Source of the DNA: Zootoca vivipara
Lineage: Eukaryota
DNA length: 64,000 nt
NCBI RefSeq assembly: GCF_963506605.1
Contig: NC_083289.1
Span: 28,148,001 to 28,212,000, forward strand
Reading direction: 5' to 3'
Part shown: in pieces, positions 5,865 to 55,902 of the stretch
How the letters are laid out: every line of letters starts with the position of its first letter
Position numbering within the stretch: position 1 is the stretch's first letter
Program-made: the position numbers and the translations under genes
The notes under the pieces: generated by a model
What the model was told of the DNA's origin: nothing
Databases searched by the model: none
The model's input: only the letters and a program-made list of their open reading frames with translations

Positions 5865-16772
<10,908 letters not shown>

Positions 16773-17879
16773 GAGGCCCAGCCGCCGGCGAACGAGAAAG
16801 AGGGAGAAAGGTGAGGAAGACGGAGAACGAGCCGGAGAAAGCGGCGGCTGAGGCGACTTTCGTTTTCTCTCGTTCTCGCCTCAGCGGAAAGCTAAAGAGG
16901 AGGCGGAAGTCCCGCCCCTCCAGGAGACGGGGCCGGATTTGCAGTGTGGCAGCTGCTCACTGGCCCACGCCGGCGGGAGGGCGGCCAATGAGGAGGAGAA
17001 ATAGTGGCAGGAGGAGGCTGGGTGGCTCTACGCTCGTCGTCATAGCGATGCCGCGAGGGGCCGCCCTGGGCTCGCGCTCCAGAGCGGGCTTCGCGGGTTG
17101 GCCCGGCCTCCCGCCATTGCCTCCCTCGTCTCCCCCTCAAGAGCTGCGGCTGAGGGCTAGCTAGAGAGATGTCGGCGCCTTTTTCGAAAAGTGCCCCCTA
17201 TTGTGAAGAGCTGGTCCCTCGGCGGAGCGGCTGAAGCCAAACTCTTGTAGCACCCTCGTTGCCCAACTGCAGCACAACAGCCCTGCAATGCTGACAGTGG
17301 GCCTTTCTCTCCGGCGCCTGCCGCCGCCACCCTCCCCACTTACTCTTGCATCTCCAAATAGGAAGGAACCTGGGATGCATTAAAGCAATTACTTTTTTAA
17401 AAAATGTTTTGAGCCAGTGGCCTAGCACTTCTCAGTCAAACCTACGCACACAAATTGCTGGGGAAAGCAGAGCGAGCTAGCTTCCAGCTGCCTTTTCTTT
17501 CTCCAAGATCAAAGCAGCTCGCTCATTTCCCTGACAGACCCCCCCCCCCTCAACCAGGAACTCTTGAGACCAACTGCATCTCTGTTTCCTTATGAGCTAC
17601 TGATCCTAAACCCAGTAACTTGAATGCCATGCATCTAGGCACGTGGGAATTCTATGGGAAACAGACCTACTTCAGCAGTCAATTTAGGAGACATTGTTAG
17701 GAATAAAAGGGAAGCAGACAGAAAGAAAAAACAATATAATATGAACCTTGGTATTGTGGCTCTGAACTGAACCAACCCTACCCTATCCACTACATTCACT
17801 GTTCAAGTTCACTCACAAAAAATAAGCAAGACTGTCGTGTGTGGTCTAGTTGAGATTTGGTGAGTGATTGCCAAAGAAG

Positions 17880-17948
17880 TTGAGATTCCTGCATTGCTAG
17901 GATTTGGATTAGATGACCCTGAGGTCCCTTCCAATTCTACGATTCTAA
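17880..17948 (+). mobile_element. CR1 LINE 3' tail fragment
   Basis: GAGATTCCTGCATTGC...AGATGACCCTGAGGTCCCTTCCAATTCTACGATTCTA. The same tail recurs at about 21485-21550, 42672-42730 and, inverted, at 35307-35360. Confidence 0.65.
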
Positions 17949-17987
17949 GGAGCAGCTCAGCTTTTTTATCTCGTCTCCCCACCCTCT

Positions 17988-19328
17988 CTTTTTTACTATA
18001 ATTTTTATTCATTTTCCATCAAACAATAATTCCAATTTACATCACCAATCTAATCTTTCCATGCTCCACTGAGCTTAAGACTTCCTTCCCCCCCTTCAAC
18101 AAGCTTTCTATTACCAATCTATATGTCGCATTTATTTCTTAAACTGTAAAGTCCATATCGTAGGAATTATTTCAGTCTTGCTAGTGTCTTCAAACTTTTA
18201 CAATGATTATTAATATAGTCAATAAATTTACTCCAGTCTCTCTGGAATTATATGTCCTGGTTCCTGACTCTGCAAGTCAATTTTGTCAGTTCTGCATAGT
18301 CCATCAATTTCGTCTGCCACTCCACAAACATTGGTACAGTATTTCTTGTGATTTCCACTTTTGGCCTAATAAAGTTCTTGCCGCAACTGTGGCATATAAA
18401 AACAGTCTTTGGTCTGCTTTCGCAATTTCTTCCCCCATCAACCCCAGCAGAAATGTTTCCAGTTTTTTAAGGGAAAGTATATTTAAGCATCTTTTTAAGT
18501 CATTATATAACATCTCCCAAAAGCATCTTATTTTGTCACATGTCCACCACATATGATAAAAATCTCCATCTTTTTCTTTGCATTTCCAACACATTCTATT
18601 ATTCATCCTGTACACTTTAGCCAATTTTACCGGTGTCCAATACCATCTATACATCATTTTCATTACATTTTCTTTTAATGCCATGCACGCTGTAAATTTT
18701 AATTTTCATTCCACAGTTTTAACCACACATCATATTCAATATTATGCCCAAAGTACATTGCTCATTTTATCATAACCTCTTTTGTCTGTTCATCCATTGT
18801 ATATCATTCCAGTAACAAATTGTAAATTTTTGATAACAGTTTACTTCTGCCTTCCAACAGCTCAATTTGAAATCTAGATTTTTTTATCCTCAAAACCAAT
18901 TTTCTTCTCTCCCATAAAAACATCATTTAATTCATAAAGTCCGAGCAGGCTTTCTTCCTGGCAGACAATTAAAAGATAATGTAAGACGTATTGGGGATAT
19001 AATAGAATATTTGGAGACCAGGAATGATAAGCAAGCAGTATTAATGTTTATAGATGCAGAAAAAGCTTTTGATAATATTTCTTGGCATTTCATGAAGAAA
19101 AGTTTGGAAAAGATGGGGATAGGAGGATCTTTCCTGAAAGGTATAGATGCAATATATTCTGAACAAAAGGCAAAATTGATTGTGAATAACGTTTTGACAG
19201 AAAATATTGATATAACTAAAGGTACTAGACAGGCGTGTCCGTTGTCACCATTATTATTCATCACGGTCCTGGAAGTATTAACCAATAATTTGAGAGAAGC
19301 TTCAGAAGTAAAAGATATAAAGATTAAT
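17988..19328 (-). mobile_element. 5'-truncated, 5'-inverted L1-clade LINE
   Basis: The - strand at about 17988-18935 encodes the ORF2 C-terminal CCHC region (CWKC...HMWWTC) followed by an AATAAA/A-rich tail. The + strand at about 18936-19328 encodes RT motifs (GFLPGR, IDAEKAFDNISW, GTRQACPLSPLLF). Confidence 0.85.
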
Positions 19329-19460
19329 CTCTTCCCTCTCATGGGAGGGGGAAAGCCCTGGGTCTTTGGTCAGGTATTAAGGACTCTTTTTGCATATGAA
19401 GGTGTTTGCAGGAGATATACAACTTTAAAACTTGGTGACACACAGCTCTTCAGATGAAGG

Positions 19461-19550
19461 CATAGCTGCCAAGTTTTCCCATTTCTCACGAGGAAGCCTA
19501 TTCAGCATAAGGGAATTTCCCTTAAAAAAAGGGAGAACTTGGCAGCTATG
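19461..19550. mobile_element. 90-bp hAT-type MITE
   Basis: TIRs CATAGCTGCCAAGTT / AACTTGGCAGCTATG with a perfect 8-bp TSD GATGAAGG. Confidence 0.88.
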
Positions 19551-19825
19551 GATGAAGGGTGGTATACAAATTTAATAATAACAATAAGCCTGTATTTCTA
19601 TGCGTTTTCTTTCCTGACATGTAGAGATCCTGGCCTAGAGATGCAGCATCTTTTTTATGAAGGCGCTCATTTCATTTGACTGCACATGCCCTGTTACGCA
19701 ATTCCTTTAGCTATGCTCAGCAATGCAACGTGTACATATTGGTTGAAGAGGAGGCAAACTTTTGGCTTAGAGGGGCTGCCCTCGCTGAAAAGGGATTATG
19801 TGTAGACACGGAATTGAGACGAACA

Positions 19826-19918
19826 AGAACTCCAGCTATATGCTAACACATCATTATGCAATTAGCCAATTGCAAGAACTCTAGCTATATGCTAACACAT
19901 CATTATGCAATTAGCCAA
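19826..19918. repeat. Tandem duplication, about 48-bp unit x2
   Basis: AAGAACTC(C/T)AGCTATATGCTAACACATCATTATGCAATTAGCCAA repeated head-to-tail. Confidence 0.85.
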
Positions 19919-20429
19919 ACAAACACAAGTCTTAACTTGAGGGTCACTTGAACAGGACCACGTCAACCCATTGCATCACCACTAGAGACTAGCAACAGGC
20001 CTGGCCATCTCGTGACATGGTTGCACACATCTAGCAGAATCAAGCAGGGAAGAAGTGGTTTTCATGCTCAGCACAGCAGAGTGGTTTAAACCTCTCTCCC
20101 CAGCCCAGTGTTGTGATGGGGGATGCCCACTTCCTGAAGCTGTGATGTTACCAGCTGCTGTCATCTTTGTTGCAATGGGAAAGCACCTGGCCTTTTATTT
20201 GTTCATCAGACTGGACCCTGTATTTATGAGCAATGTTACCTGATGCCACCTTGGCTCGGTGGTCTACAGGCCAGTGGTCCTTCACCATCCCTGCCTTTTT
20301 CCGTATTTGCTATACAAACAGATTTTGATTCTGTAAATGGGAAACCCATTGCTCCCCAAGAAGTTCTGGCAGCTCTGACCTTCAGAAAGTTATTGCTAAT
20401 ATTTCATCGGAATCTCTTTTATTGTCACT

Positions 20430-21780
20430 TGTTTTGGGTCCCACCCTCCAGAGCAGCAGAAAACAAACTTGCTCCATCTTCCATGTAACCTTTCAGATAT
20501 TAGAAGATGACTATCATATCACCTCTCAAGTTTCCTCTTCTCCAGGCTAAACATACCCAGCTTCCTCAACTATTCCTCATAAGGTTTGGTTTCCAGCCCC
20601 TTGATCATTTTGGTTGTCCTCCTCTGCACATGTTCCAGCTTGTCAATATGCTCCTTAAATTGTGGTGGCCAGAACTGAACACGGGACTCCAGGTGGGGTC
20701 TGACCAAGGCAGAATAGAACAGTACTATTACTTCCCTTGATCTAGACCAGGCATCCCCAAACTCGGCCCTCCAGATGTTTTGGGACTACAACTCCCATCA
20801 TCCCTAGCTAACAGGGCCAGTGGTCAGGGATGATGGGAGTTGTAGTCCCAAAACATCTGGAGGGCCGAGTTTGGGGATTCCTGATCTAGACACTATTATT
20901 TCTGCTGATGCAGCCTAGCATTGCACTAGCTGGATCACACTGTTGACTCATGCTAAGGTTGTGGTCTACCAAGACTCCTCGCTCCCTTTCAAGCCAGATG
21001 TCCCTCATTCTATATCTTGTGCACCTGAATATTCCTTGCTAGGTGTAGAACTGTACATTTGTCCCTATTGAGATTTTATCTATTGTGCAGAGGATGGCAA
21101 CCATGATGATCAAGGGTCTGGAAGCCAAGCCTAATGAGCAACATTTGAAGATGAGTAGTCTGGAAAAGAGGAGACTGTTAGGAGACACAATAGCCCTTTT
21201 CAAATATCCTATGGGCTGTCACATGGAAGATGGAGCAAGCTTGTTTTCTCCTGCTCTGGAGGAGATATTTTATTAATCGAATTTATATACCGCCCATTAT
21301 ATACCCATGAACAAATGGCTTCAGGTTACAAGAAAGGAAATTCTGACTAAACATCAGAAAGAACTTTCTGACAGTAAGCACTAATCAACAGTGGAATGGT
21401 GTCCCTCAGGAGGTTGTGTATTCTCCTCCTCTGGAGGTTTTTAAGCAGAGGTTGGATGGCCATCTGTCATGGATGCTTTAGTTGACATTCCTGTGTTGCA
21501 GGGGGTTGAACTAGATGACCCTTGGACTCCCTTCCAACTCTATGATTCTTTATTAGCCTCCCAAGTTTGATGTCAGATTTGATGAGCACCCCCTCTATTC
21601 CTTAATTCAAGTCATTTATACAGATATCGAACAACACTGGGCCCTGGAAAAAATCCTGTGGCACCCCATTGGTCACTTTTCAGGATGATGAGGAACTGTT
21701 GGTGAACATTCTTTTGGTCAGTCAACCAGCTACAAATCCACCCTAACAGTAACATTGTCTAACCCAGATTTCAACATTAA
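20430..21780. mobile_element. Cluster of decayed CR1 LINE fragments in both orientations
   Basis: + strand 21085-21550 reads VQRMATMMIKGLE...SLEKRRL.GD.IALFKY and ends in the CR1 tail. - strand CR1 ORF2-like sequence lies at about 20430-21080 and 21560-21780. Confidence 0.75.
20748..20883. mobile_element. Near-perfect palindromic hAT MITE nested in CR1
   Basis: About 60-bp inverted arms (CAGGCATCCCCAAACTCGGCCCTCCAGATGTTTTGGGACTACAACTCCCATCATCCCT) with a perfect TSD ATCTAGAC. Confidence 0.9.
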
Positions 21781-22494
21781 TGTCTTGCTGTTTTAAAGTC
21801 CAAATTGGCAGTGGAATTTGTGGGGGTTTTTTTAAGTCTGGTAATAAAGCAAGTAAAATTACAGTACAATATACCCTCACTACCCGGCAAGGGAGTTCCA
21901 GGTTTGAAACCCCAGATATCACTCTTGTAATATGTATAAGCCACATAAAGTGCAGTCAGGTACACATGTAAGTTTGGCAACACCTTTAATAAGTGTACAG
22001 TTTTGCTGCGCCCACAGTTCAATCATCTGATGCTGACAGGAGCCCAACTCTGCCAAAAATCTATCAAGGCACAAATGGCTCCCTTTCCACTTCAAGGAAA
22101 GAGTCAGAGCTGAGCAAAACTCTCTGATCTCACCTAGTTTCATGAGGTGCTGCTTGCTATAAATGTTTCCTTTCAGGTATCAGCACCCTTTGCCTTTTTG
22201 GTTTCAGAAACAAATATAGCATCCTCTCCAACTAGTAACTGGTTGCAAACTCCCCCATGTTAGTTTAAAACATGTCAGAAGGAAAGCCTTTGGAGAAAGG
22301 CCACAGCCCAATGATGGAGCAGCTGCTTTGCATGCAGAAGGTCACAGGTTCAAACCACAGCAGCACCTTCAGCTAAAATGATCCAGTAGTGGACAATGAA
22401 AACAACCAATTTCTCTGGCAGAGACCCTCCTAAGAGTTGCAGCCAGCAAAAGTAAATGTGCCAAGCTATTTTTGGCAGCTGCCTATATATCTTC

Positions 22495-22508
22495 CCAGCA
22501 GGGGGCAC
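22495..22508 (+). promoter_or_regulatory. CTCF-binding motif
   Basis: CCAGCAGGGGGCAC closely matches the CTCF core consensus CCA[C/G][C/T]AG[A/G][G/T]GGC[A/G]C. Confidence 0.5.
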
Positions 22509-22744
22509 TGCGGCCCTATCTGGTTTTGGGTCTCCGCACACACCCTACTCCAATTCCCCTTTCCTAGCTGTCTTCCCAATTGCTGTGGGGGACTGAAGGG
22601 GAAAGACTAAAGCAATTTCTTATCACCTGAGCAAAGAACAGAACTATGCTGTGACAGAACTGTCACAGGAATTTGGGTGAGGTGGAAAGAGCAAATAAGA
22701 GCCAGAAAGGCGTTAGTTCCAAATAGTTATAAAGTGGTCAGATC

Positions 22745-22750
22745 TTTAAT
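22745..22750 (-). terminator. Probable polyadenylation signal (ATTAAA) of the ZIP gene
   Basis: tttaat on the + strand, about 165 nt past the stop codon. It overlaps a + strand AATAAA at 22748-22753. Confidence 0.5.
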
Positions 22751-22912
22751 AAAAACATTTGAAGGCACAGCCTATCAGTGTCCGCTTGGGAAGAAGGGGA
22801 AACGGGAGGAGAGAAGCCACCATCTCTTCATTCTAAAAAGCTGCCTCCTGTGAAGCCGAGCCTGCCAGCGTCCATCTCTGCAGGGAAGGGCATCTCACTC
22901 AGCTGCTGGCCC

Positions 22913-24538
22913 TCAGCCCAAGAAGCGCAGGCCAGCCATCCCTGAGAAACCCAGCAGCACAGCAAGGACTTTGAGCAGGCGCCTGGCAGGATCGTTCAGC
23001 TCCTGAGGCAAGATTTCCAGGAAGGTGATGTACATGAAGGTCCCGGCGGCCACGCCTTCCAGCACACTCCGGGTCATGGTGGGACTGCCGCCTGCATCAG
23101 GGTTCTGCATCACAGCCATGCCCAGCCCGACACCCAGAGGGGACATCAACGCAAAGGTGATGATGGAGGCTGCCAGCCAGCGCAGGGGGAGGCGGCTCTG
23201 GAGCAGCAGCAGGGCCAAGCTGGCAGCGATGATGGTCTTGTGGAGGAGAATGGCCACAGCCAGCTGGAGGACCTTTGATTCTGTGTCCTGCAGGCCCACC
23301 GCCAGGCCCTCAAACACTGAGTGGAAGGAGAGCGAGAGGGTCAGCACCAGGGAGCGGAAGGACGAGGGTGCTTTGGTGTCCCCCATGTGGCAGTGGGGGG
23401 TCCCCGCCTCCAAGCGCTGCTGCTGTTGCTGCTCAGCCAGGCTGCCTTCTTCGGAGTGTGAAGGAGAGGGGCAAGGCAAGAGGGGCAGGGAGGCCTCATC
23501 CCCCTGCCGCTCGCTACAGGCCAGGATGATGTGCTCTAGGACCAGGACCAACAGGAAGCCCAGCGCCAGGACCAGTTCGGGCACCGGGAAGTCCAGCTGT
23601 GGGGCAGGGAAGAAAAGGGAGGCACCATCAGGTTAGTAGAGAAACTGTTCCCCCGAGGCCCCGACTCCCACCTAAGGGCATCTCCCCTGGAGCCAGGAGG
23701 GCCAAACCACCAAAGGAGCTCCAGAGCCTCTGGGCTCCTGATAATTCTTCCCCAGGGCTGCAACAATCCCTATCTTGGGAATTAAACAGGTTTCAGTAAA
23801 AGGAAGGCTTGGCTATTGCTTTCAGAAGGTTACAGTGCAGCCCTGGTGTGCTTAATATGGAGGGAAGGTCAGCAGCCCATTTGAAGATCTCCTAACCTTT
23901 CCCACAGGGCAAAGGGCAAATCTGAAAGCAACTCAGGCCTTTGTCCAGTCAACATCTCCCGGCCTCTTCCCTCCTCCTCCGAGCACAGGAGCGTGTGAGT
24001 CAGCTCAGCCCCATCACATGCTGTCTCGCAAAAGCTGGGCGGGCAGGGCCAGCGGGACTCCGGCGTCCAGCAGCGCCAGCAAGATGTTCGCTGGAGCCCC
24101 CCTCCCCACTTTTTGTTCGGGGGCTGCAGCCCGTGATGCGTCTCCAACCCTCCGGGCCCGGTCACAGTGTCCTGATCCCCCGCCCTTCACCACTCGGTAC
24201 CGGGGGGATCTGTTGGCTCAGGTCCTCGCGCAGGTCGGCCAGCGAGTCCGGCACGATGTCCAGCAGGCAAGCGGACAGGAAGACGCCACCGGCTGCGCAG
24301 CTCAGGACGCCCCGCCAGCGCGCAAAGAAGCCTGCAGAGGGAGAAAGAAAAGCGGGCGCTGAGAGGGAGAGGAGCCGGGCCGCGACCCCCTCCCAGCTCT
24401 GCCCTGCTCTCGCCCTCACTCACCGGTCCCGGCAGCTCCCCGGAGGCTGAGAAGGACGGCAGGCAGGAGGCCGCAGAGAAGCGGCAGTACCGCCAACCCC
24501 AGCAGGCAGCCCAGCTTCAGAACCTGCAGCGAGCCCAT
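22913..24538 (-). CDS. ZIP (SLC39A) subfamily II zinc transporter, ZIP1-like, 309 aa
   Basis: Exons 24424-24538 (gccATGG Kozak; MGSLQVLKLGCLLGL...), 24201-24331 (SCAAGGVFLSACLLDIVPD) and 22913-23596 (LDFPVPELVLALGF...HSVFEGLAVGLQ...LLHK...EGVAAGTFMYITFLEILPQEL...LRFLG*) total 930 nt and are open. HSVFEG in TM4 and HK in TM5 mark the ZIP1/2/3 subfamily. Exact orthology is unresolved, so no symbol is given. Confidence 0.93.
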
Positions 24539-24830
24539 GGCGCAGCCTGGACCACGCGCCCCGCCCCGCCTGCGCCGAGGGGCATTTAAACCTTCGCGCC
24601 ACGTGACGGGTACCGCCCATTGGAGGGCGCCGATTGGCCAGCTGCCGCCTCAGGGGCGGGGCTCGCGCCCACGTGCACCAGGGTAAGGCTGGGAGCGTGG
24701 CTGCGGGCTCACTTCTCAGCGGCTTTATCTCCACCCGAGGGGGAAATTATGACTGGGGAGGGAACCGCCCGTGGACTTTGACCCCGAGAGCAGAGGCTCT
24801 CCTCTGGCCCCTTGGCACCCGCTGGCCAGG
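24040..24830. promoter_or_regulatory. CpG island / ZIP gene promoter
   Basis: CpG-dense. TATA-like TTTAAAT on the - strand about 50 nt upstream of the ATG, two CCAAT boxes (24619-24623, 24633-24637), GC boxes and two CACGTG E-boxes. Confidence 0.7.
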
Positions 24831-25768
24831 ACTATGGACAAGAGCAGTAGCTGCGGAGGAGGGCGGAGGCAAGGGGGCGTCATTTGGTTCTGTAGCCTCT
24901 GCTACTAGAGGCCCCCATGGAAGGGAGCCCGCAGGCAGGGCCAGAACAGCCCCCTCCCCTCCTGCCCTTGCTGGCCAGGCCATCTAAGAGCATAAGGAGA
25001 GCCTGGTGGATCAGACCCGTGGACCATCTAGTCAGCATTCATTCTGTCCTCACAGTGGCTGACTAGATTCCCCCAATGGGAAAACGGCAAGCAGGATCCT
25101 AGCACCCGAGCAAATCTCCCCTCCTGCAGTTTCCAGCAGTTTCTGCCTTCAGCTATGGAGGCAGAGTGTAGCGAGCCATCAATCACCGTGAGTTTATCTA
25201 ATGTTCCTTGAAAGCCAGCCAAGTTGGTATCCATCACTGCCACTCCTATCGGAGTGAATTCCACAGCTGTGTGAAGAAGGACTTCCTTTGTCTTGAATCT
25301 TCCATGTGCTTCCTTGGGGGTTGGTGAGAGTTGCCTTGAGCTGAGTCAATTTGACCTTTAAGCCCAGCCTTGACTGCTGGCAAGGCCAAAGAGCCTCTTC
25401 CAGAGTGTGCAATGGACTGCAGCATGAGTCATGGAAGGCTCTCAGAAAATCTGACTGGGTGGGCTGTAGGGCCATTGGAAGCTTCAGTGCAAGGCGGTGG
25501 CGGTGTGGCCACGTGACTTTGGAACCCTCAGAAGTAGATGACGGCTGTTTGGCTATCTGTTCTGCTTGGGTGTGGACTCCATTTAGAGAAGGGAGTTCTT
25601 AATGCATCCTATGGCACTTCTTTTCCAGAAGAGAGGTCTGCCAGGCCTACTTTGTGGGAGCCTTTGTGGTGATGGTGAAAACTTCCCCTTTTGTACACTG
25701 GAATTTACTCTGTTGCATCTATTAGTTTTTAGACTTTAGACACAACCCTACTGACAGTTTGTGAACTA

Positions 25769-25998
25769 CAGTGGTACCTCAGGTTACAAACACTTCAGGT
25801 TACAAATGCTTCAGGTAACAGACTTAGCTAACCCAGAAATAGTACCTCGGGTTAAGAACTTTGCTTCAGGATGAGAACAGAAATTGAGCGTCATCGCGGC
25901 AGCGGGAGGCCCCATTAGCTAAAGTGGTGCTTAAGAACAGTTTCATGTTAAGAACGGACCTCCGGAACGAATTAAGTTCTTAACCAGAGTTACCACTG
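25769..25998. mobile_element. Tc1/mariner (Tigger-like) MITE
   Basis: TA|CAGTGGTACCTC...GAGTTACCACTG|TA. Confidence 0.8.
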
Positions 25999-26527
25999 TA
26001 CAGCAAAGGCACCTCTGTGTTAGTGCAACTTAAGATACATCTCTACCGCTTCATACAGAGACAGGAAACTTGTGGCCCTGCAGATGTTGCTAGACTCCAG
26101 CTCCCATCACCCCTGATCATTGGACATTCTAGCTTGAGCTGTTGGGAGTTAAACTGGAGGGTCTCAGGTGTCCCAAACAAGCTATGCCACTACAATGCTA
26201 CAGTGCAACTCTGCTGATACAAAATCCTATGCCACTTAAATCTCCATTCAGGTTTCCCACATCAAAGTAGGTGGCATATGTTAAAAGGCACCCGTTGAGC
26301 AGAGTGGTGTATCAGTCTGGAGTTGGAGTCAGAGATCCTTTCCTATTTGTGCAGCAGAGTAGCTGCCATCTTCAACCTCCTAGAGCTGCCCCTTCAGCTC
26401 CAAAGGGGAGCTTCTCAGCCACTGTGTGCTCCAAAGTCAAGGGCAGAGGAACACTGAAAATACATGTCAGACTTCCATTTCAAGAGAACAAGTTGTAAGT
26501 TCTGTTATGTACAAAGGAACTTCACAG

Positions 26528-26902
26528 GTTGTTGTTGTTGTTTAGTCGTTTAGTCGTGTCCGACTCTTCGTGACCCCATGGACCAGAGCACGCCAGGCAC
26601 TCCTGTCTTGCACTGCCTCCCGCAGTTTGGTCAAACTCATGTTCGTAGCTTCGAGAACACTGTCCAACCATCTTGTCCTCTGTCGTCCCCTTCTCCTAGT
26701 GCCCTCAATCTTTCCCAACATCAGGGTCTTTTCCAAGGATTCTTCTCTTCTCATGAGGTGGCCAAAGTATTGGAGCCTCAGCTTCACGATCTGTCCTTCC
26801 AGGGAGCACTCAGGGCTGATTTCCTTAAGAATGGATAGGTTTGATCTTCTTGCAGTCCATGGGACTCTCAAGAGTCTCCTCCAGCACCATAATTCAAAAG
26901 CA
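26528..26902 (-). mobile_element. BovB (RTE clade) LINE 3' end
   Basis: Intact terminal ORF peptide AFELWCWRRLLRVPWTARRSNLSILKEISPECSLEGQ...LMLGKIEG.RRRGRQRTRWLD...VHGVTKSRTRLND, followed by a (CAA)n tail. Confidence 0.92.
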
Positions 26903-27830
26903 CCATAAGGTAGCACAGGTAGCACAACTTAAAACACACCAAAGGAATGTATTGAAATACTTCAAGGCATTTGCCCATGTACGTGCACAGAAAACAGTAG
27001 ATTTATCTGGGAAGCAACACAAGGAAATCTGCACTGGTTGTTCTAATTCCTCATTATTGCATACTCATAGGATTATTTTCTAATCTTAGAAGGGGCATGA
27101 CTGTCATGATCATGAAGGGACCCTGCACTTCTGAAATTGGCACCCCACACTGATTGAACACAACAGAAAGTAAACACAACTAAGTACTGGACCCACCTCT
27201 CCCCACTCCATGCCCAGGCCATCACAATAGACAAACTCTGCATCCAATCACAGGGCACCAACTGTGTTATATAACCCCCCCTCCAGCCCACTACTCAGAG
27301 GGCAGGGCATGTGGCAATCACCTGAGTCAGTTTTTAAGATCATCTGAAGAGACCTGCTGGCTGCTCTTTGAGGGGCATATTGCTGACACCATGGAAACAG
27401 GCTTTCTCCATGATAACCCCCACTGCCCAGGCAACTCGTGAGGTGGAGAATTGGAGACAGCAATGACCCTTAAATGCTTCTTAAAAACATGTATGTTTAC
27501 TCGTTTTCCCAGATTCCAACTCTTCAAATTCTTTGCCTTGCACACTGATTGGTTTTGTAGAATACATATTTTTTTCCTGGGTTTTTAAGGACTCTCTTTG
27601 AATGCTGTAGTTTGTATTTTTATGGTTTTCAAATGTAAGCTGCTTAGATTTGTCCTACTAAGCAGTATACAATATTTATAACATAAATAATGGAGATGGG
27701 GTATTTTTTTTCCAGAAAGTGGCACACTTTACCCAAGGTGCTTGAGGGCATTGCTGATTTGGATTCCTGGCATTTGGAGCAGCTTCCTCTAAAGCTAGGC
27801 AGAGTAGAAAGGGTGGGCATGTCCTTAGGG

Positions 27831-27966
27831 GCATGGACATAACCAGGATTTATGTTGCGGGGGCAGGCTTCATTGGGGGGGGGGAGCGAATCTCAGTTAA
27901 GTATTTTTATTGATGTACTTAATTTAGGGGGCCATCTTACCCCTGCCCCCCTTGGTTATGCCCATG
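27831..27966. mobile_element. Short hAT-type MITE
   Basis: TIRs CATGGACATAACCA / TGGTTATGCCCATG, similar to the ends of the element at 50935-51312. Confidence 0.6.
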
Positions 27967-28159
27967 CTCAAGGGGTCTGGGACTTTCTACAGAGCTGAGC
28001 TGCCTTCCAAAGGGGATTCCCAAGGGGCTGGAACTAGCACTGGTCTCTGGGATGACTGGCCTTTGGCTGACTCTGAATCAGCACAGGGCCTTGGAGCTCA
28101 GGAGGCAGAAATTCCAGCTTCTTCCCCTTTCTCTAGATCACAGGCAACTTTGCCTGTCT

Positions 28160-28203
28160 CCCTCCTCCTCCTCCTCCTCCTCCTCCTCCTCCTCCTCCTC
28201 CTC
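28160..28203. repeat. (CTC)n microsatellite
   Basis: Direct reading. Confidence 0.95.
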
Positions 28204-29174
28204 AAGTGACAGGCCCCATACTGCTTGCATACCCAAGGCATCAATAATGGATCAAGCCCCCATTGTTCCCCTTGATGTGTCAGGATGGTGGGACCAGCCT
28301 CAGGTTACCAGGGAGGGAGAGAGAGGGCAGGGTAGCTGCACCTGGCAAGCTAAACAGGCACATTGGTTTCGTGGAGCTCCTTCTGTGTGATGTTTGGGCT
28401 TCCTGTGGGGCTTCTGTGCACCAGAAGGTTCGGGTCACCTCCCATAGACCACTAGAGACAGCAGAAGCCTGGGCTCACACTTGTGGGCATGAAGCATCCT
28501 ATAGCTCTGATCTCGCAGCCTGGCACCCTTGAACCATCCCGATTCCCACTGTTACTTTCTGAGTTGATCAAAGAGAGTGCCCCAGTGGCCTCTAGGCCTC
28601 CTCTTCTTGAAGGACTCCATAGTTTGCCATAGCATGGAAGGGGGGCAGAGTGCTGCCCAAGAAGTAGAAAGAGATATCTGAGGAAGCAGATCCAGGGGCT
28701 GGGGCAGCTTGTATGCCAGAGCAGACAGACAGCATTCTGCCCTCTTATGGTGCAAGATGGTGCATCCCCTCTCCCCAATTCCACATGGAGTAGCTGATCA
28801 GGTTGGCCGACGGGTCTCATTCCCAGCCAGGCAATGGGATTGCAGAGCCTTCTTGTCTGCAGGGCAGCTTTGTGGATACAGGGCAGATGGCAGGGCTCCA
28901 TCCCCCACAATGGGCAACTTCCCTCTAGGGTCTAAGGGTAGGGAGGCCTAGCTCCTTGCCAGCCTGTAGGGGTTTTGTTGCCCCCATGGCCGGACCCTGC
29001 ATGTCAGGCTGGGCTCCTTTCCTTCCTGGATGTAACTAATGCTCTGGATGGCAGAAAGGGATCGGCTCTGCAGGACCAGCACCACATCTCCGGTGTCAGC
29101 TCCTGTTTCAAGCCTCTCGGAGCAGCCGCCTTTTCCCTGGGCCCAGCCGCTGTGCACATGGGATGGGTGCCAAC

Positions 29175-32100
29175 ATGGCCCCTTTCTTCTGGGGCCTCTG
29201 GGGGCTCTTCTTGCTGACGCATCCTCTGCCAGGTACAGGGGCGTAGTAGCAGGGAGGGGAGTCAAGGGTCTGTGTGTGGGCATGCAAGTGGCCTCCTGCA
29301 TTTGTCTGTGGCCAGTGACCCCTGTCCCCTTTCTCCCAGCAGGGGCAGCGGGGGAGCCGAGCAGGAACCTGCGACAGGGTTTGGCAGGGCTATTGACACC
29401 TCCCGGAGAGCAGCGCCAAGGGGGCTCTGTTTCTCCCGGGCCCAGCCCAGGCTCGGCACATCAGCAGCACATGCACCGCTTAGTGCATCCCCTTCTCCTC
29501 AGCCTGGAGTCCCTGTGGGGCAGGCATCCTCCCTCTCCCCAGGCCCGGAGCCCTGAATCCTGCCTGTCCAGCTTCCTCCACAACATCTCTCTGTACCTCC
29601 AGGGCGAGGAGGAGCAGGAAGCCCCGGAGTCCTGGGAGAGCCTCCTGCTGCCACTGCTGCTGCCACCACCTCAGGCCGAGAAGCTGCTCTCACCAGCATC
29701 CTCTGGACACCGGCTCCTCCAAGACATCCTCTTTTCCTGGCGGCGAGGCAGCCGGCATTGGGATGGGTGGCTGAGCTTTACCCAGGACTTGCTGAGCCTC
29801 CTCCTCAGTTGGGCCCAAGACCCCCCACAGCACCTCCATGGGCAGCAGGGCTGGGAGGTTCTCAGCAACCTGATGGAAGCCCTGGGCCAGGCTGTCCTCT
29901 CTGGGTTGCTTGGCTCACAGGGGTCCCTTTGCCCCCCAACAGGGCAGAGTGGGTGCCAAGCGAATGCCAGTTGGCTGGGGCAACTACTGCGGCTCTTTGA
30001 GGGCACTGGCTGGACAGCCTTCCTGCACATTCGCCCAGCAGGCTTCGCCCCCACCGATGGCCAGCAGAAGCCCTTTGGCCTGGTCCCCGCGACCCCCCGA
30101 GAGCTGCCCCCTGGCAACCGCAGTGCCCCCAGCCTCTCAAAAACCCTCTACCGGACAGAGCAGCCAGGCACGGGCGGGAAAGTGCAGGAACCGGCAGGAG
30201 GCTCTGAGGGCAACATCTTGTGGGAGGCGCTGGAGGAGCTGAGGCAGAGACTGTGGCAAAGGGCAGGCCCAACCCTCGTCACCAGCTTCCGAAGGAGGGT
30301 CTTGCATGTGACGGGCCTGCTGGCAGCTGAGGCTTCAGAGGCAGTGGGGGTCCCCCAGCCTGACCCAGATGGGAAGTGCTCCGTAGGTAGGTGGGTGGGT
30401 GAATGAATGGGGCTGCAAGCCATGGCAGGGAGGGCACAAGGAGAGGGAGAGATGGGCCAGGCCTCCTCGGGGGCCGCAACCCTAACCATCCTCTTCTCTG
30501 TCCCTAGGAAGTCTGCAGCAGCTGCTGCTGTGGTAAGTGGTTGTGGGGACAGCTTCTGGAGGGGGAGAGTGTTGCTTTTGTGTTCGAGTCCTGCTTACTG
30601 GTTTCCCACAGGCATTGGTTGGCCATTGTGAGAACAGGATGTTGGATCTTTGTCCTGTTGCAACAGGGCCTTCTTAAATGTCCTGGAAGGGGGTGACCAG
30701 CCTCCTTTCCCTGGACTAGGTGGTGGTGATGCTGTTCTTGTTGCCACTCTTGGGCTGAGTTTCGTCGTTCCTTGGGCAAAGGGTGGCAAGGCCATGGGGT
30801 ATGACATGGCATGGAGTGACATTCAGAAGGGGTGGTAGTGCTGTCAGGGCAGTGATCTGAGCAGAGGGCCATTTGTGGCAGGACCCTGGGGGCATGGTGG
30901 CTGCTGGCTTGCCCTGCTGGTGATCTCTGGCACGGCACTCTGAATCACCTTGTGCCTGGTAAGTGGTGGACCCTCCTCTTCTCTACTGTTCGCAGGGGAA
31001 TCAGACACAACATCAGCTGGGACACCCTGCGTGTGGACTTGGCCTCCAAGGCCTCCTTCCCATGGCCTCCTGTGGTGCCCAGTTGCTTGCTGCCTGCTGG
31101 GGAAGGGCACAGGGTGAGCGAGACCCTCCCTCCAGCCCCCCGGAGAGCATTTCCTGATCCCCCCTCCCAGGCAGAAGTCCTGGAGGCCGCCTGCAACGAG
31201 AGCATCCCCGGCTTGCCAGGAATCTCCAACTTCACCATCTACTTGTATTGCACCCTCTTCAATGGTTCCAAAGAGCCCCACCGGCCCCCACCAGACCTGG
31301 AGGCCTTGTGTTCCAGCACCACCTGGTACTTCTCCTCCATCGAGGGCGACCCGGTCTGGATACGAGCCTGCAAGGAGTACTTCCCCCAGCAGTTCAACAG
31401 CACAGTGTGTAGCAATGCCTCTGTCCTCTTGCACCTTGGGCCCCACCAGGAGCTTGTGGAGGAGCTCTGTGCCAACCTCTCCATGCCCTTCCAGCCCAGC
31501 CGTTGCTCAGAGGCTCTGAACAGGCCTCTGCTCGGCCGGGAGGACTTCTGGACCTGCCTCTCCCTGGAGAGCCAGACACTCTGGACCCAAAACCTCTGCA
31601 GCAGCAGCAGCCTGCGGGAAGTCTCTGATGCCACCAGGCAGTGGATGGGCACCCTCTGCCACAGCCCGCTGGCCCAAGGGGCTGGGCTGAATACCTCTCT
31701 GCGCCAGAGCATGGAAGTACCAGCTTGTGGTGCTAGGGCCTGGAGCCCTCAAGCGCTGCACAACACCAGCTTCCTAGCTCAGTGTGGAGACGCCCACCTG
31801 CAGAGCTTCCAGGAGCTTGTGTGCAGCAATGAGTCCCTACTGGAAGCCCTGCAGCTGGCCCACCCCTGGGTGCTGGTTCACTGCTTGGCTGTTGAGCAGG
31901 ACAGGAGCTGCTCCCTCCCGTGGCTCCCAGGGGTGCTGCCATTGCCCCCACAGCTCTGCCAGGATGCGCCGGCCTTCCTGATGGCACTGGTATCCCAGTT
32001 AGCCCGGTGCAAAGAGCCCTCCCACTCCTCTTCCCAGTGGGCTCCCAGTGCCGGCTACCTGCTGCGGCTGCTGGACTTCCTGCTGGCTTCTCCTGCCCTT

Positions 32101-35100
32101 GGCGAAGTGGGGCAAGAGGGAGCCAGGCAGCAGCTGGGCCAGGCTCTCCTGCTCTCCAGCCTCCTGGGCAACAGCTCCTTTGGGACTTCTCTCCAAGCCA
32201 ACTTCTCCCTGAGCATCCTGGAGGATGTGAGCCAGTTCCTGCAAGAAGGCGAGCTGGATCCGGCCACCAAAGAAGACCTGCTTAACTGCTTTGGGGTGGG
32301 TGATGCTCTGGGGACAGGAGGACGGTTGGGGAGGCTACTGTCCATAACCACATGGGGAATGCCTGATAGGAATGTGTCCCCTCCCTAGGAATGCTAAGAA
32401 GGGGGTCTGCCCTCTGGGCTGCATGAATGGATTTAGACATGAAGAGAGGATATTTTCATTCATTGCTCATGTGAGTCAGATCATGGGTTCAGTCCCTTCC
32501 TCTTCCAGGAAAGTTTCACAGAATTGTAAAAAATCTGAAGGGTCATCTAGTCCAACCCGCTGAAAAATCATCAAGAAATACTAAAATGTACTTATTTTTC
32601 CCCACCGAGGGAACATTTAGTCAGTGGACCACATACAATCACTCCAAACTATATCAAGCACTCTGCTCCTTCTCTGCTCAGCATACAATGGAAAATAAGG
32701 TTTAACACTTTTCTCCATGGTGCATCTTACACACTTATAGCCACCTGTCTCACTCTCACCTACCAACCTAGATGGCTTTCAAAGAGCATTAGACCAATTC
32801 GTGGGAGGAGAGGCCTGTCGATGGCTACTAGCCATGAGGACTAAGGCAATAATGCTTTTGAATCCCAGTTTCTGGAAACTGCAGGAGGAGAGAGGGCTCT
32901 TGTGCTCAGGTCCAGCTTGTGAGAACAGGATGCTAACCTAGAGAAACCCCTTTTGGCCTGATCCAGCAGGCTCTTCTTCTCTCTCCTCCTTGCAGCCTTT
33001 GCTCTGGAATCTCCTGGAGAGGGAGGAGAACATCTCAGCCCTGGAGTTCTTCATACAGGTACCTTCCTTCCATTCCAGTCTCCAGTCCTGTTGGTCCTAA
33101 AGCCACTTCCTTTGCCCAATACTGGTCCCTGGAGCAAAGCTGCACCTCTCCTCCTTCTCTTCCTCCTCCAACCCCAAGGCTGACCTCTCCCCCTTTCCCC
33201 TCCTTCCTGGCCAAGGCGCCTCCCTTGTGGCAGCTCCAGTGAGGCAGGGAAGGGAGTGGCACTTTTGTTGCTGCCTTGCCTCCTCCTCTCCCTCCCACTT
33301 TTCCAGGAATACCTGCAGATGCCCCATAAGGTTGTCCAGAGGCTGCTGTGGTCAGTGGAAGGTGAGACCACCCAGAGGTTCCTGGCCCTGCTGCACCGCT
33401 CTTGGGATCACCTGCAGATGAAGGTAGGTCTGTGGCAGAAGGGCTGGACTTGATTAGGGGTGCAGCACCTGTGAAGCCTTGACATGCCCACCAGGCTCCA
33501 CATGGAAAGGGGGGTATTTGTTTAATGTAGGTGTTGGTTGGCAGCTCCAGACCTCAGCGCCTTGTGAAACCCTCCAAGGGAACTCCCTTTCCCTCTGCTC
33601 AGGGCTGGCTCTAGGCCCGCCCCCGGTGGCGCCGCTGTGCCCGCTGAGAGGCGCAGCTGAGGCTGCCCCAGGCGTGCCCCTGCTGTTCAGTGGCTTCAGG
33701 CTGCTCTCCGGAGGCGCGCGGGCCTGGGGCCGCCTCCGCCGCGCGCAGGGGCGTTGCAACAGCCCTACAACAGGCTGGGTGGCGCAGTGTAGCTGCGCCC
33801 GCCAGCCACGCTGGGAAACGGGGTGGGGCGCCGGAGGGATCCGTCGTGCCAGGGCGCCGGGCATGGTTAAGACGGCCCTGCCTCTGCTTCCCTCCACCAG
33901 GTACCTCTGTGGGATGAGCGGGCAGTGGAGTCACTGGCTGCCCAGCTCCTGAGCAAGTTCCCTCAGCTGACCCCACAACTCTTCCTCCACCTCTCTCACT
34001 TTGTCCCTTTCATGGCTGCCTCGGACATCCTGCGCTTGCCATCCGCCCTGCTGGCCAACGATAGCGTGTGAGTGGCCCCCCCAAGCGCCTGCATGGCTTG
34101 GCCCAAGCCTTCCTGGGGCGTCTTTCCCCAAACCTCCTCCAGAGCCATCAGGCCCTCCCTGCCCAGTTGAACCCCTAGTGAGTTTAGCCCCAGGTCCTAA
34201 TGAAGGTGGGTTTAGTCCCCAACTCCACTTTCAATCTTGTGGCAGGAACCTTCAGGAAAGATGGTGCTCGAGCATTTATTTATTAAATTTGTCAGTCGCT
34301 TTATCATGTCCAGGGTAACCCAAAGTGACTTACAACCAATCAAATAGACAATAAATCCCACATAGATACATTAAAACCAAGAGGAAGGAGAAATATATTA
34401 GAAACATCCCACATGCTTCTAAAAGGTCACAGAGAGCTCAAGGCCAAATGCCTGGCTATAGAGGAAAGTTTTTGCCTGGTGCCTAAAGATAAATAATGAT
34501 GGTGAGCCTTCCTGGGGAGAGCATTCCACAAACAGGGAGACACTGCAGGAAAGGCCTGTTCTCATGTTGCTACCCTCTGGACCTCTTGTGTGGTCAGAAT
34601 AGAATGTCCTTTCTGTCACTTCTGAGTAGCCATAACCAGCCCCTCTTACTGCAGGGAGGGTCTGGGCCCTCTCATTTCACCTGAAGCACTCCTTATGTTG
34701 GTCTTCCTAGGCTGTGCCCATCCCCCTGGCCTCATGCGTGGCATTGGCCAGGTAGTCCTTCACTCAGCATGCGGTCTGTGTGCCTGTAGTTTTCTCAGGT
34801 GAGGGGTGGGGGAACTTCTCTTGCTAACATAGCCTCTTTCTTCCCCTCTCCGACCCTCAGCTTGGCCATCATTAGCAGCCAAAGTGCCCGGATGACGCTG
34901 GCACAAAAGCGAGCCCTAGTGCAGCGCCTCCTGCAGGCCGAGCACCTCCTGGGTGAAGTCCCTTCCTGGCCCCCGGAGTTCCTTCACAGCCTCCAGCCTC
35001 TCCTTCCTCACCTTCCGCTTGGCCATTTCCTTCAGCTAACACAGCAGCAGGTGGGACCAGGGTGCAGAGGCTGAGAGCAGCCCGGGTGTGTGTGTGTCCT

Positions 35101-36352
35101 GGGCATCTCCTTCAATTGCCCCTGGAAAGCTGGGCAAGCACTCTGCTGCCTCTGTGGGGATAAACCCTTTGTGAGAAGGTGCAGTCCCTGCCTCCAGCCC
35201 CCTCCCCACAGGACTGGAAGCTGGTGGCACACCCTCTGGAACCCCGGGGGGGGTGAGCATGCCCCAGAGTACCCACTTATGCCAGGGATGGTGTTTTAAT
35301 AAAATAATAGAATTGTAGAGTTAGAAGGTTGGTCATGTTGTCCAACCCCTGCAATGCAGGAATCACAGCTAAAGAATCCATGCCAGACGGCCATCTGACC
35401 TCTGCTTTAAAACCTCCAGGGAAGGAGAGCCCACCACCTTCCAAGGCAGTCCATTCCACTGTCAAACAACGCTTAAATGTTGGTGTGTCCCTCCAGATCC
35501 AGAGCTTGGTGAATGGCTGGCAGGAGGCTGAGCTGGGCCTGGCTCAAGGGCGCCATGTAGCACGCAGTTTGCTCAACAGGAGCCACGAGAGCACCGAGGA
35601 GCAGGTGGGCAGGTGAGTGGTGGGGAGGCAGGCTTGGGAGCAAACTGACTTGGGTGATTGATTTTGTGTCCCAGGATATCCCACTGATTGGTGGGTGCAG
35701 CTGTTCAAGGAAGAGGAAGAGATTTCCTCCCAAGGCAGCACTCCACATGGCTTTGGGTCCAAGGGAGAGCAAGGCATGCTACATTCAAGAGACAAGCCAA
35801 AGGTGACCCCGGTGACATGATTATTGCTAGACCAGGCAGGAGTTATGTCCCCAAAGTAAAAGGTAAAGGGACCCCTGGCCATTAGGTCCAGTTGTGACCG
35901 ACTCTGGGGTTGCGCACTCATCTCGCATTATTGGCCGAGGGAGCCGGCGTATAGCTTCCAGGTCATGTGGCCAGCATGACAAAGCCGCTTCTGGCAAACC
36001 AGAGCAGCACATGGAAACGCCGTTTACCTTCCCGCCGTAGCGGTTCCTATTTATCTACTTGCATTTTGACGTGCTTTCGAACTGCTAGGTTGGCAGGAGC
36101 TGGGACCGAGCAACGGGAGCTCACCTCGTCGCAGGGATTCGAACCGCCGACCTTCTGATCAGCAAGCCCTAGGCTCAGTGGTTTAACCCAAAGTATTAAA
36201 CCACTTTGTCCCCAAAGTATTTCCTGGCAAAGATGCATCACGGCAACAGGAGCTGAAGAACCCCAGATGGAAGGATATTTGTCCACATAGTTCTCTTTCA
36301 AAGTCTGTGGACACTTGGGTTGTACAGAACATGTGAACTTCAGAAGGGCCCT

Positions 36353-36411
<59 letters not shown>

Positions 36412-39400
36412 GTCAGGCTGAAGGGGTCCATCTGGTCCAGCATCCTGTTTTCACAGTGGCCAGCCAGATGCCCCAGTGGGAAGCCCAAAAGCAGGAGCTG
36501 ATTGCAACAGCAACTCTCCCCAACTTGATTCCTATGAACTGGAGCTTTCTTGAAAGAGCAAAAGCTCTTCAGAGGGGGAGGAGCATCACCCTTTGTGCAT
36601 CTGGAGCAACATCCAACCAGAAGCATCAGAGTTTGGGGTCCAGAACAGCAGGAAGGCCTACATGGGGTGTGGCTAGCACCAAGCGAGCAAGTCCCAACAG
36701 CCTACTTCTGCCTGTTCCCCCTCCCCCATCCTCACAGGCTCGGGGCTCTCACCTGCTTCCTCAGCATTGGGGACTTGCGTCTGATCTCCCCCTTGCAAGA
36801 TCCGTGGGGGCCGATCGAGAAGCACCTCCTGGAGTGTGTGGCCAGAGGGGTGGTGGACCCTCATGGGCAGGTGAGTGGTGAAGAGGACCAGGCTCTCTTG
36901 GGCACAGCAGAGCCTAGCCTAGGGCCAGTGCTGCTGAGGACATTTCTCCCCACTGTCCCTCAGCCTCCTTCTGGGGGCAAGCCACTCTTCACAGAGATCC
37001 AGCTCTGGTGATGCTCTCCCAACTGGAAGCAAATCTGCAGAACCCTCCTCTTCTCCAGGACTGAAGCCTCCTTTACCAAAGCTGGCTCCTTCCCCTGGTT
37101 GGGCCACCACCTCATCTGACTTGCCATTGCCTTCTCCTCCTCCTCCTCCTCCTCCTCCTCCTCCTCCTCCTCCTCCTCCTCCTCCTCCTCCTTCCAGCTG
37201 GCCCATGCCCTGGCAGAGCTCCTGCCTTCCTCGGTGGGCTCCCACGAGCTGCAATCCTGGCGGGGTCTTGTGCCAGCCATGGGGGTGGAGTTCCTGCGGG
37301 GCCTGTCAGAGTCTCAGGTAGGGGCTATCCTCCCAGAGCTGCAAGCAGCACAGCTTAGCCGTGCCCAGGTGAGTTGTACTGAGGGTATGCCCTGCATCTG
37401 CCGTGGGGGTGGGTGGGTATTAGGCAAATTTGACCTCTCCAGAGTTGGGGGCAGCAGCAGCCTACCTCAGGAGACATCCTGCCTAGGTCAATCCCACCAA
37501 CTCCCTGTCATGGGGATGAGCTAGGGCTTCCACTTCCTTATGCTCAGGCAGCTTCCTTGTTTGTTTGCTTATTTATTTAGTAAAATTTATACACTACTTG
37601 ATTGTTGTTGGGTTGTTTTTTTTAAAGCCACCCTCTAAATATAAAACAATGGCTATCAATAAGAAAAATTAGCAATAATTTTTAAAAACTTTCATAAAGT
37701 TGTAATAGCAAAAAAAACTGAAAGCAGATTTAGGGGTGGATCTATACTCATGTTTTATAACATAAAAAATGTGTTATTAAAATGTGACACCAGAGGGCAC
37801 TGCAGAGCAGCGAGCCACCAGCCATGGGAAACTGCATTAAACGTTACAGAACATTACGTATATTTAATAACGTTTAAAAGATCAATGTAGATCCAGCCTA
37901 AAACTCAATCAACTTTCTAAGCATCTGGGTGGGCTTATATAAATAAGAATGTTTTTAGCAAGCACTGAAAATAGTACAAGGAAGGACCCTGCCAGATATC
38001 AATAGGCAGGGAGTTCCAAAGTGGAGGTGCTGCCACACTAAGAGATCCTTCTTCCCTTCAGGCTCTCCTGCTGCTCTCGCAGGCACTGCGGATGGAGAAT
38101 GTGAGTATCACCCAGAAGGTGAAGCTCAGAGGTAGGTGTGGAGGTCTGGGGCAGAGACCTCCTTGTTTGACCTGGTCCAGACAGCAGGGACAGGTCAGCA
38201 GTTGGCAGGCCCACAGCTCTGAAGATGGCAGACCCCAGCTTGGCTTGGAGAATCTGCCACCTCACCTGCCCACTCACTCTTCTTCAGGAATGAAGAGCTG
38301 AAACGAACTAGTGAGAAATAAAGTCTAGTCTGGGGAGGGAGGAGCTCCCTGGGAATCTTGCCTCTGTTATAACCGTTTTGTAAACCTGCAAGCTACAGAC
38401 ATGCTTGTTCAATCCAAAACGGAATGCAAAGCATTTCCCTGTCTGCTGATATTGTTGGGCAGGGGGATCCAAAGCCCCACCAGTACCACCACTCCACCCC
38501 TTGGTTTTCAGTGATGGGCTCTGTGGCCTCCCTCCCACCCTGCCTTCTGTCTCTGCAGGTGACGCTGAGTGGGGCTGAGCCTCTCTGCTCCCTCCTCGCT
38601 GGCCTGGGTCCCCAATCTCTGGAGGTGGCGGTGGCGGCTGTCTTGGCCAGAGGCTGTGCATGTGTGGGCCCCACTCTGCCCCATCTCTCAGGAGCTCAAA
38701 AGGCAGGTCTGCTTCAAGCTCTGCAGGTATCTGGCGAGGCCCACAGGGATCCGGGCGGCTGTGTGTGTGTGCCCTCGAATGGCTTCAGCCTCCCTAACCG
38801 CGTGTCCCCTTCTTGTGCCTGTCCCAGAGGCATGGCCCAGAGTCCCCTGTCCTCAGTGCCCACCTGGACTGCCTCCTGCCTGCTGTCCCTCTCAAGCTCC
38901 TGCAGGTGGACACCCAGGCCCTGCTGGGGAGGAGCAGCTGGCACCGGAAGGCACCTTGGTCCCCACAGCAGGTATGGGAGAAGAGTGCTGGGCAGGGCGA
39001 TGGGAGGCCAAAGCAAAGGGTGTCATTCACTCCCTGTGGTGTCTCCATAACTCAGGGGTAGAGCATGCAGACAGCCATGGGCTCAGCACCCACCAGCATC
39101 TCCAGGGGAAGCTGGGAATTGTTCCCTGCCTGGAAGCCTGGAGAGCTGCTGTCAGTCCATGCTGACAGTGCTGAGCTAGATGGACCCACGGTCTGGCTTG
39201 CCACAAGGCAGCTTCCTAGCTTCTTTTTACGTCCCTCTTTCTCAGGCCCAGTTCCTTTGGCAGAGCATTGAAGCCAGTGCCAACATGACGGGGGACCTGA
39301 TCTGGTGAGAGCCACACCCCTGCCAACTCCCCTCCTCCCTCCCTCCTCTGCTAATGGGATGACATGGGTGGTGATGGCTGAACTCTCTCCCCATGGCAGG

Positions 39401-46165: not shown

Positions 46166-55902
<9,737 letters not shown>

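Follow-up and report, generated by a model that had tools for sequence, protein, structure and literature searches.

A stretch of 64,000 nt of Zootoca vivipara DNA (hereafter the window, within which positions are counted unless another sequence is named) contains an intact member of the ZIP (SLC39) family, subfamily II, encoded by three exons. This gene is an intact, spliced fourth paralogue of the subfamily and a predicted zinc importer. It is likely the whole-genome-duplication sister of SLC39A1 and likely the source of a later copy, SLC39A2, and mammals, birds and crocodilians have likely lost it. Within this reading, the existence of the paralogue and the wrong placing of many fish gene names are firm. 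The gene is already present in databases, as 'ZIP1-like' or as Xenopus 'member 1 like', and what is gained is a corrected orthology, with no new transport mechanism.

Gene model and neighbourhood

An exhaustive GT-AG search of the minus strand returned one open reading, which encodes 309 aa. The features of the gene and of its surroundings are as follows:

4.0-4.6 kb: Occludin_ELL exons by Pfam (ELL3 by gene order)
8326..16772, minus: protein disulfide isomerase (PDI) gene (PDIA3 by gene order); thioredoxin-domain exons at 8.3-13.6 kb, first exon starting at 16772
22450..22912, minus: 3' untranslated region; contigs stop at 22721 and 22738, one continues past 22450, end not fixed
22913..23596, minus: coding exon 3, 684 nt; TM3-TM8, metal site (His174, Glu178, His201, Lys202, Phe269, Glu276) and stop
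23597..24200, minus: intron 2, 604 nt, GT-AG, phase 0; spliced out in contigs from X1 and X5
24201..24331, minus: coding exon 2, 131 nt; TM2, Asp63/Asp67
24332..24423, minus: intron 1, 92 nt, GT-AG, phase 1; spliced out in contigs from X1 and X7
24424..24538, minus: coding exon 1, 115 nt; start codon and TM1; record 4 of the X1 contigs covers up to 24549
23941..24856, no strand: CpG island covering the promoter and exons 1-2
24559..24675, minus: putative promoter-like motifs, from pattern matching only, without a control
24559 and 24653, minus: GC boxes of the promoter-like region, with a TATA-like hexamer at 24585 (pattern matches)
24600 and 24670, minus: CACGTG boxes of the same region, with two CCAAT boxes at 24619 and 24633 (pattern matches)
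30856..37521, plus: stereocilin exons; range of Pfam matches (30.9-37.5 kb), the gene being longer
46602..47443, minus: creatine kinase exons (46.6-47.4 kb; CKMT1 by gene order)

Exon 3 matches the Pfam Zip family with 157 bits (E 8e-46; curated cut-off 35.1), exon 2 matches it weakly (E 9e-5) and exon 1 has no Pfam match. Hydropathy analysis shows eight hydrophobic segments in the 309-aa protein, the first of them at residue 12, behind a short N-terminus. The protein is identical to a database entry from a lacertid lizard, P0001, named 'zinc transporter ZIP1-like'. A glutamine tract in the TM3-TM4 loop (23415-23440) varies in length among close relatives through insertions of one and three codons.

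In the contigs of three out of four runs the predicted introns are skipped exactly at their predicted ends: contigs of X1 and X5 lack intron 2, and contigs of X1 and X7 lack intron 1. The runs were taken for RNA by guess and three come from relatives 90-99% alike. Neither the contigs of run X8 nor the raw runs X19-X21 contain splice joints at the window gene. About 6% of each raw RNA run, all carrying the same species label, was read: two of the three have a few reads on the 3' end of the gene, at low depth and with the first mate always on the plus strand, as for a minus-strand transcript in a usual stranded library, and X21 has no reads on the gene. A complete 3-exon, 309-aa ZIP subfamily II gene with a CpG promoter between PDIA3 and STRC had been proposed in a sequence-only reading of the window, and the model, the Pfam matches, the spliced contigs and the CpG island agree with that description.

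The Occludin_ELL, thioredoxin and stereocilin exons were identified by a Pfam scan of 150 window frames of at least 75 aa (all 86 to the left of the ZIP gene and 64 of the 261 to its right), and the names PDIA3, CKMT1 and ELL3 combine these families with the human and mouse gene order in Table S4 of PMC2572835, rather than a comparison with mammalian proteins. In the part of that source concerned with this block, both species have the order CKMT1-STRC-CATSPER2-PDIA3-ELL3, and no SLC39 gene is listed there (PMC2572835). The lizard ZIP gene occupies the slot held in mammals by CATSPER2. The interval from the PDI gene to stereocilin (16800-29100) yielded no CATSPER2-like exon, none of its 123 plus-strand frames of at least 30 aa matching an ion-channel family, and CATSPER2 was not identified elsewhere in the genome among the 150 of 484 candidates scored. 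Adjacency of stereocilin and ZIP is shared by a lizard lineage other than lacertids, since an iguanian gene model (P0349) fuses stereocilin to a window-type ZIP. A LINE-type reverse-transcriptase fragment lies at 18918-19454, between the PDI gene and the ZIP gene. Elsewhere in the genome, C-terminal exons of CATSPERB are found in three tandem sets (G000:C1:21898849-22075828; ~21.90, 21.98 and 22.07 Mb), either a triplication or an assembly effect, and a creatine-kinase match without introns and with one internal TGA (G000:C14:50831124-50831759) is likely a processed pseudogene.

Paralogues in the genome and phylogeny

A genome search with exon 3 identified four subfamily II genes among 12 candidates, on chromosomes C14 (the window gene), C17, C13 and C6. 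The C17 gene (339 aa; exons of 199, 131 and 690 nt) lies 8 kb from a CRTC exon (TORC_N) and 19 kb from a bZIP exon, neighbours which, by the human gene order, we take to be CRTC2 and CREB3L4, and corresponds to SLC39A1; this answers the question, raised from the window alone, of whether the genome holds a separate SLC39A1. The C13 gene (exons of 115, 131 and 597 nt), 10 kb from the sole Rsm22/METTL17-family match, corresponds to SLC39A2, its 280-aa model probably missing a short exon when compared with database relatives of 298 aa. The C6 gene, with two coding exons and 318 aa, corresponds to SLC39A3. Because the same genome holds these three genes beside SLC39A1-, SLC39A2- and SLC39A3-type neighbours, the window gene is the fourth paralogue of the set, and a translocation does not account for it. 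In mammals NDRG2 is a close neighbour of SLC39A2/METTL17; in the lizard this pair (C13, 40.78 Mb) is ~9.7 Mb away from an NDRG-family match (C13, 31.11 Mb).

The window gene shares with SLC39A1 (ZIP1) three coding exons, intron positions, an ancestral TM2 (Asp63, Asp67), a lysine at the second metal site and a paralogous chromosome, the two proteins of this genome being 46% identical; it differs in the absence of the 20-30-residue N-terminal extension, in its C-terminus and in having PDI/stereocilin instead of CRTC2/bZIP neighbours. Its likeness to SLC39A2 (ZIP2; 42% identity) lies in a common clade (see below), in the 115/131-nt first coding exons in this genome, in the metal-site residues and in C-terminal length, whereas ZIP2 is located on C13 by METTL17 and has a pH-sensing His63 where the window protein has Asp63. 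The 131-nt exon 2 is of the same size in all three genes. SLC39A3 (ZIP3; 30% identity) has in common the subfamily II fold and the main ligands but has two coding exons, Glu rather than Lys at position 203 and a clade of its own. That mammalian ZIP2 is also 309 aa long is a coincidence, as an insertion behind TM2 is combined there with a loop of reduced length.

Sequences were collected in three homologue searches (best 120 of 570, of 919 and of 542 matches) and in a search of 50%-identity representatives. The main tree, rooted on ZIP3, was a maximum-likelihood (ML) tree of 77 rows and 298 columns, in which we call A the lineage of SLC39A1, B that of SLC39A2 and W the window gene with its relatives, many fish 'ZIP1' included. 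Two lineages are shown for jawed vertebrates, A (support 96/87) and W+B (97/95; 91/96, unstarred, in a 34-row tree). The former comprises mammalian ZIP1, the C17 gene, birds, crocodile, amphibians, a 340-aa coelacanth protein, ray-finned 'ZIP3'/'ZIP1-like' and shark proteins of 319-329 aa; the latter comprises the window gene, turtles, amphibians, ray-finned 'ZIP1', lungfish, a coelacanth pair, shark proteins of 307-309 aa and SLC39A2. The claim that the window gene is an old paralogue held when tested; as a 'Zip1 paralogue', in contrast, it was misleadingly labelled, since the tree puts it on the SLC39A2 side.

Inside W+B, the window gene lies outside clade B (100/100), which holds the C13 gene, and within a tetrapod W clade (100/99) that includes Xenopus 'member 1 like' and joins ray-finned 'ZIP1' at 93/82; the TM3-TM4 loops of the frog and ray-finned proteins carry 6-12 His versus 3 in the lizard. 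Nesting in the mammalian SLC39A1 or SLC39A2 clade, in a genome with no other copy, would have indicated a simple translocation; the gene falls outside both clades and has three paralogues in the genome. The coelacanth W-type genes (P0094 and P0109) are sisters (100/99) on contigs of 287 and 51 Mb; they group with ZIP2 in a quick tree, are left open in the 77-row ML tree and fall outside W+B in FastTree, and one of them could lie at the SLC39A2 locus. A Pristis protein (P0092), taken for W by its search rank, is placed in A by the tree. At conserved columns W matches A at 18 and B at 9, as would be expected if ZIP2 evolved fast, but this also shows that few shared changes underlie the W+B grouping. 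In the 77-row tree the long branches of hagfish and lamprey join A weakly (96/74); if this is true, the A/W split preceded the second genome duplication. In the same tree ZIP3 groups with an amphioxus ZIP3-like protein, so the SLC39A3 split predates vertebrates.

Approximately unbiased (AU) tests were run on 34 of the 77 rows with IQ-TREE constrained searches under LG+F+G4 (5000 replicates, with a warning raised) and PMSF (10000 replicates), the constrained topologies having been found under LG+F+G4 only. Grouping with A is rejected for fish 'ZIP1' (p 0.0007 under LG+F+G4 and 0.0013 under PMSF), for tetrapod W (0.007 and 0.002) and for all W (0.003 and 0.0003). None of the alternatives inside W+B is rejected, namely tetrapod W with B (p 0.066 and 0.106), fish W with B (0.53 and 0.33) and all W without B (0.16 and 0.19), so that four branching arrangements there are not separated by the AU tests.

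That SLC39A1 or SLC39A2 was duplicated or translocated into the PDIA3-STRC interval in squamates alone is scarcely credible in the light of these results. The greater identity of the window protein to the SLC39A1 of its genome than to SLC39A2, and its database label ZIP1-like, are what such an event would leave, but turtle and amphibian orthologues share its 100/99 clade, grouping with A is rejected, B excludes it at 100/100 and separate SLC39A1 and SLC39A2 genes stand beside their usual neighbours. Genome copies, tree and AU tests together led us to rule out this explanation.

Distribution and the names of fish genes

Relatives belonging to W were found in squamates, turtles, amphibians, coelacanth, lungfish, ray-finned fish and sharks. 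The tetrapod W clade of a 362-row FastTree contains 66 rows, of which 7 from turtles and 37 from squamates make up the amniote part; the 13 rows without a name all nest beside named squamates or amphibians. None of the 66 is a named mammal, bird, crocodilian or tuatara, though these are present in A or B. The absence from mammals, birds and crocodilians refers to the best 120 of 570 matches from 7997 scored candidates and is limited by search depth and annotation, and the search of 50%-identity representatives, in which members are hidden, cannot show absence from mammals or birds. W was likely lost in mammals, birds and crocodilians, judging from protein searches and a published gene list rather than from mammalian genomes. 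The sequence-only reading, which had the gene kept in squamates and fish and lost in mammals, was right for squamates and fish but too narrow, as turtles, amphibians, coelacanth, lungfish and sharks also have it and none was seen in birds or crocodilians; its loss in mammals is likewise an inferred one.

A and W occur in one species in the sharks Heterodontus and Heptranchias, in Polypterus, Amia, Trachinotus and Seriola, and in coelacanth, and at least 10 squamates and 2 turtles have all three of A, B and W. No row among the 122 of the ZIP2 clade bears the name of a fish, shark or coelacanth. A true SLC39A1 is retained in fish as well, variously named 'ZIP3', 'ZIP1-like' or 'ZIP1'. The 29 ray-finned W rows are named 'zinc transporter ZIP1' in 16 cases and 'ZIP1-like' in one, and 12 have no informative NCBI name; among the matches listed, seven ray-finned A rows are named ZIP3, seven ZIP1 and most others ZIP1-like. 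In Amia, W is named ZIP1 and A is named ZIP3, and salmonid and herring 'ZIP1' belong to A. On these placements, 'fish slc39a1' is W in many, not all, species. The suspicion that fish 'slc39a1' may not be the orthologue of mammalian SLC39A1 is upheld by the AU rejection of fish 'ZIP1' with A. It had been argued from teleost-'Zip1' motifs as well: all four match the fish 'ZIP1' alignment rows, but coelacanth and shark SLC39A1 have KV(L/V) behind GLQ too, and this motif is not diagnostic. Further misannotations came to light: a turtle W protein (P0025) bears a chemokine-receptor name and a turtle ZIP2 (P0271) that of a METTL17 isoform, the latter, like the stereocilin-ZIP fusion P0349, because the genes adjoin.

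The placement of zebrafish DrZIP1 is presumed from 'ZIP1' of the cyprinid Puntigrus and a carp paper (PMC4281218). In the parts of that carp survey consulted, zebrafish SLC39A3 falls among the SLC39A1s and is considered a likely second SLC39A1, and SLC39A2 is read as lost in fish (PMC4281218). In the passages seen elsewhere, fish ZIP1 is treated as the counterpart of ZIP1 (PMC3944790, PMC5053974), and a table pairs fish zip1 and zip3 with human ZIP1 and ZIP3 (PMC3944790). Such fish-to-human comparisons of ZIP1 and ZIP3 are likely mismatched. Should the tree hold for zebrafish, 'zip3', which is among four gill transporters whose response to zinc supply has been reported (PMC3091702), would be ZIP1, whereas 'zip1' would lie on the ZIP2 side and have no one-to-one human counterpart. 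Full-text searches, a scope outside which most subscription journals fall, turned up no description of the W paralogues as a group, of where they lie or of how they stand to SLC39A2, and the corrected orthology may already sit in that literature or in orthology databases. On the synteny of fish slc39a genes, the text and supplement of PMC5824609 contain nothing, the main text of PMC4290089 does not contain 'slc39a', and the mentions of 'slc39a1' in PMC11224465 and PMC8574217 concern other neighbourhoods.

Origin of the lineage and predicted transport properties

A and W would have separated in a vertebrate genome duplication, on chromosomes that became paralogous. This origin is the simplest reading because A and W are both present in sharks and C14 and C17 share tropomyosin and MEF2 genes. 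Human 1q21, 15q, 19p13 and 9/5q are taken to form one paralogon, with the 15q-like and the 1q21-like chromosome as a pair from the second round. In the lizard, tropomyosin genes are found on C6, C11, C14 and C17, while MEF2 is represented on C14, C17 and C11; no further family was found to be common to C14 and C17. CRTC was not found on C14; only two CRTC genes with two CRTC domains were found (C6:10.43-10.48 Mb and C17:34.60-34.64 Mb), and a third, CRTC3-like gene was not seen. Genome domain searches gave no tropomyosin, MEF2, CRTC or creatine-kinase match on C13. SLC39A2 is best read as a relocated W copy because it is found here only in tetrapods and lies off the paralogon; less securely than the first step, it would be a later, fast-evolving copy that moved off the paralogon and gained His63, and mammals would then have kept only this copy.

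In its full form this scenario is held tentatively. The PDIA3-STRC gene could be the parent of SLC39A2, with fish 'Zip1' the pro-orthologue of ZIP2 and the window gene together and fish 'Zip3' being SLC39A1; the lack of ZIP2 in fish would be an effect of naming, and His63 would have arisen in the tetrapod copy before the parent was lost by mammals, birds and crocodilians. If so, lizards, turtles and amphibians hold the before-and-after pair side by side. An alternative in which W and SLC39A2 were both duplicated before the gnathostomes, and sharks, ray-finned fish and coelacanth lost SLC39A2, making the window gene and fish 'ZIP1' plain orthologues and neither the parent of SLC39A2, is rather unlikely: the AU tests do not reject all W without B, and the ML grouping of tetrapod with ray-finned W (93/82) is as it predicts, but it requires several independent losses, no fish, shark or coelacanth name appears among the ZIP2-clade rows and C13 bears none of the four marker families just mentioned. 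Improbable, too, is that fish 'ZIP1' is the specific orthologue of SLC39A2 and the window gene a sister paralogue lost by ray-finned fish. Here the ML trees (the 77-row tree and the free 34-row PMSF tree) join ray-finned to tetrapod W, and fish W has Asp63 and a W/A-type TM2 instead of His63, against an AU test that does not reject fish W with B.

Return to the preferred reading, of a W lineage that is the duplication sister of SLC39A1, brings up its transport properties. In the portions of PMC6527156 available to us, the ligands of human ZIP2 are His175, Glu179, His202 and Glu276, Lys203 takes the place of a second ion, and loss of His63 abolished pH sensitivity (PMC6527156). Their equivalents in the window protein (His174, Glu178, His201, Lys202 and Glu276, with ZIP2 numbering taken on the 309-aa rabbit ZIP2) are all kept; the metal-site residues are invariant in W and the frame is open across the tetrapod W rows. 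W is predicted to be a single-site divalent-metal (zinc) importer at the plasma membrane, like ZIP1 and ZIP2, because all mapped ZIP2 ligands are present, including the lysine in place of the second ion. The window protein matches no solved structure by sequence at E<=1, and its ESM Atlas matches are all generic Zip clusters, headed by one with the name ZIP2, without usable taxa.

The TM3-TM4 loop of the lizard protein has 3 His in 55 residues. In the rows compared, the His count is 2-9 for SLC39A1 and SLC39A2, 0-3 for lizard, worm lizard, python and turtle, and 6-12 for frog and fish. An acidic-dileucine-like motif in the amniote loop, imperfect in the lizard, resembles the endocytosis signal of ZIP1. 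The low histidine count, a long squamate stem branch (0.40) and the low depth in the three raw RNA runs might be read as marks of a decaying, non-functional copy in squamates; given an open frame with the metal-site residues kept, spliced contigs in three of four runs and a CpG island, we regard this as very improbable.

Position 63 is His in 104 of the 122 ZIP2 rows (14 gaps) and Asp in 52 of the 66 tetrapod W rows (11 gaps), in all 29 ray-finned W rows and in 122 of the 131 A rows, as well as in cyclostomes; among these groups His is confined to ZIP2. Because W has Asp at this position and not His63, we predict that it is without the ZIP2-type modulation by pH, and W and ZIP2 offer a natural Asp63/His63 pair for the evolution of the ZIP2 pH response.
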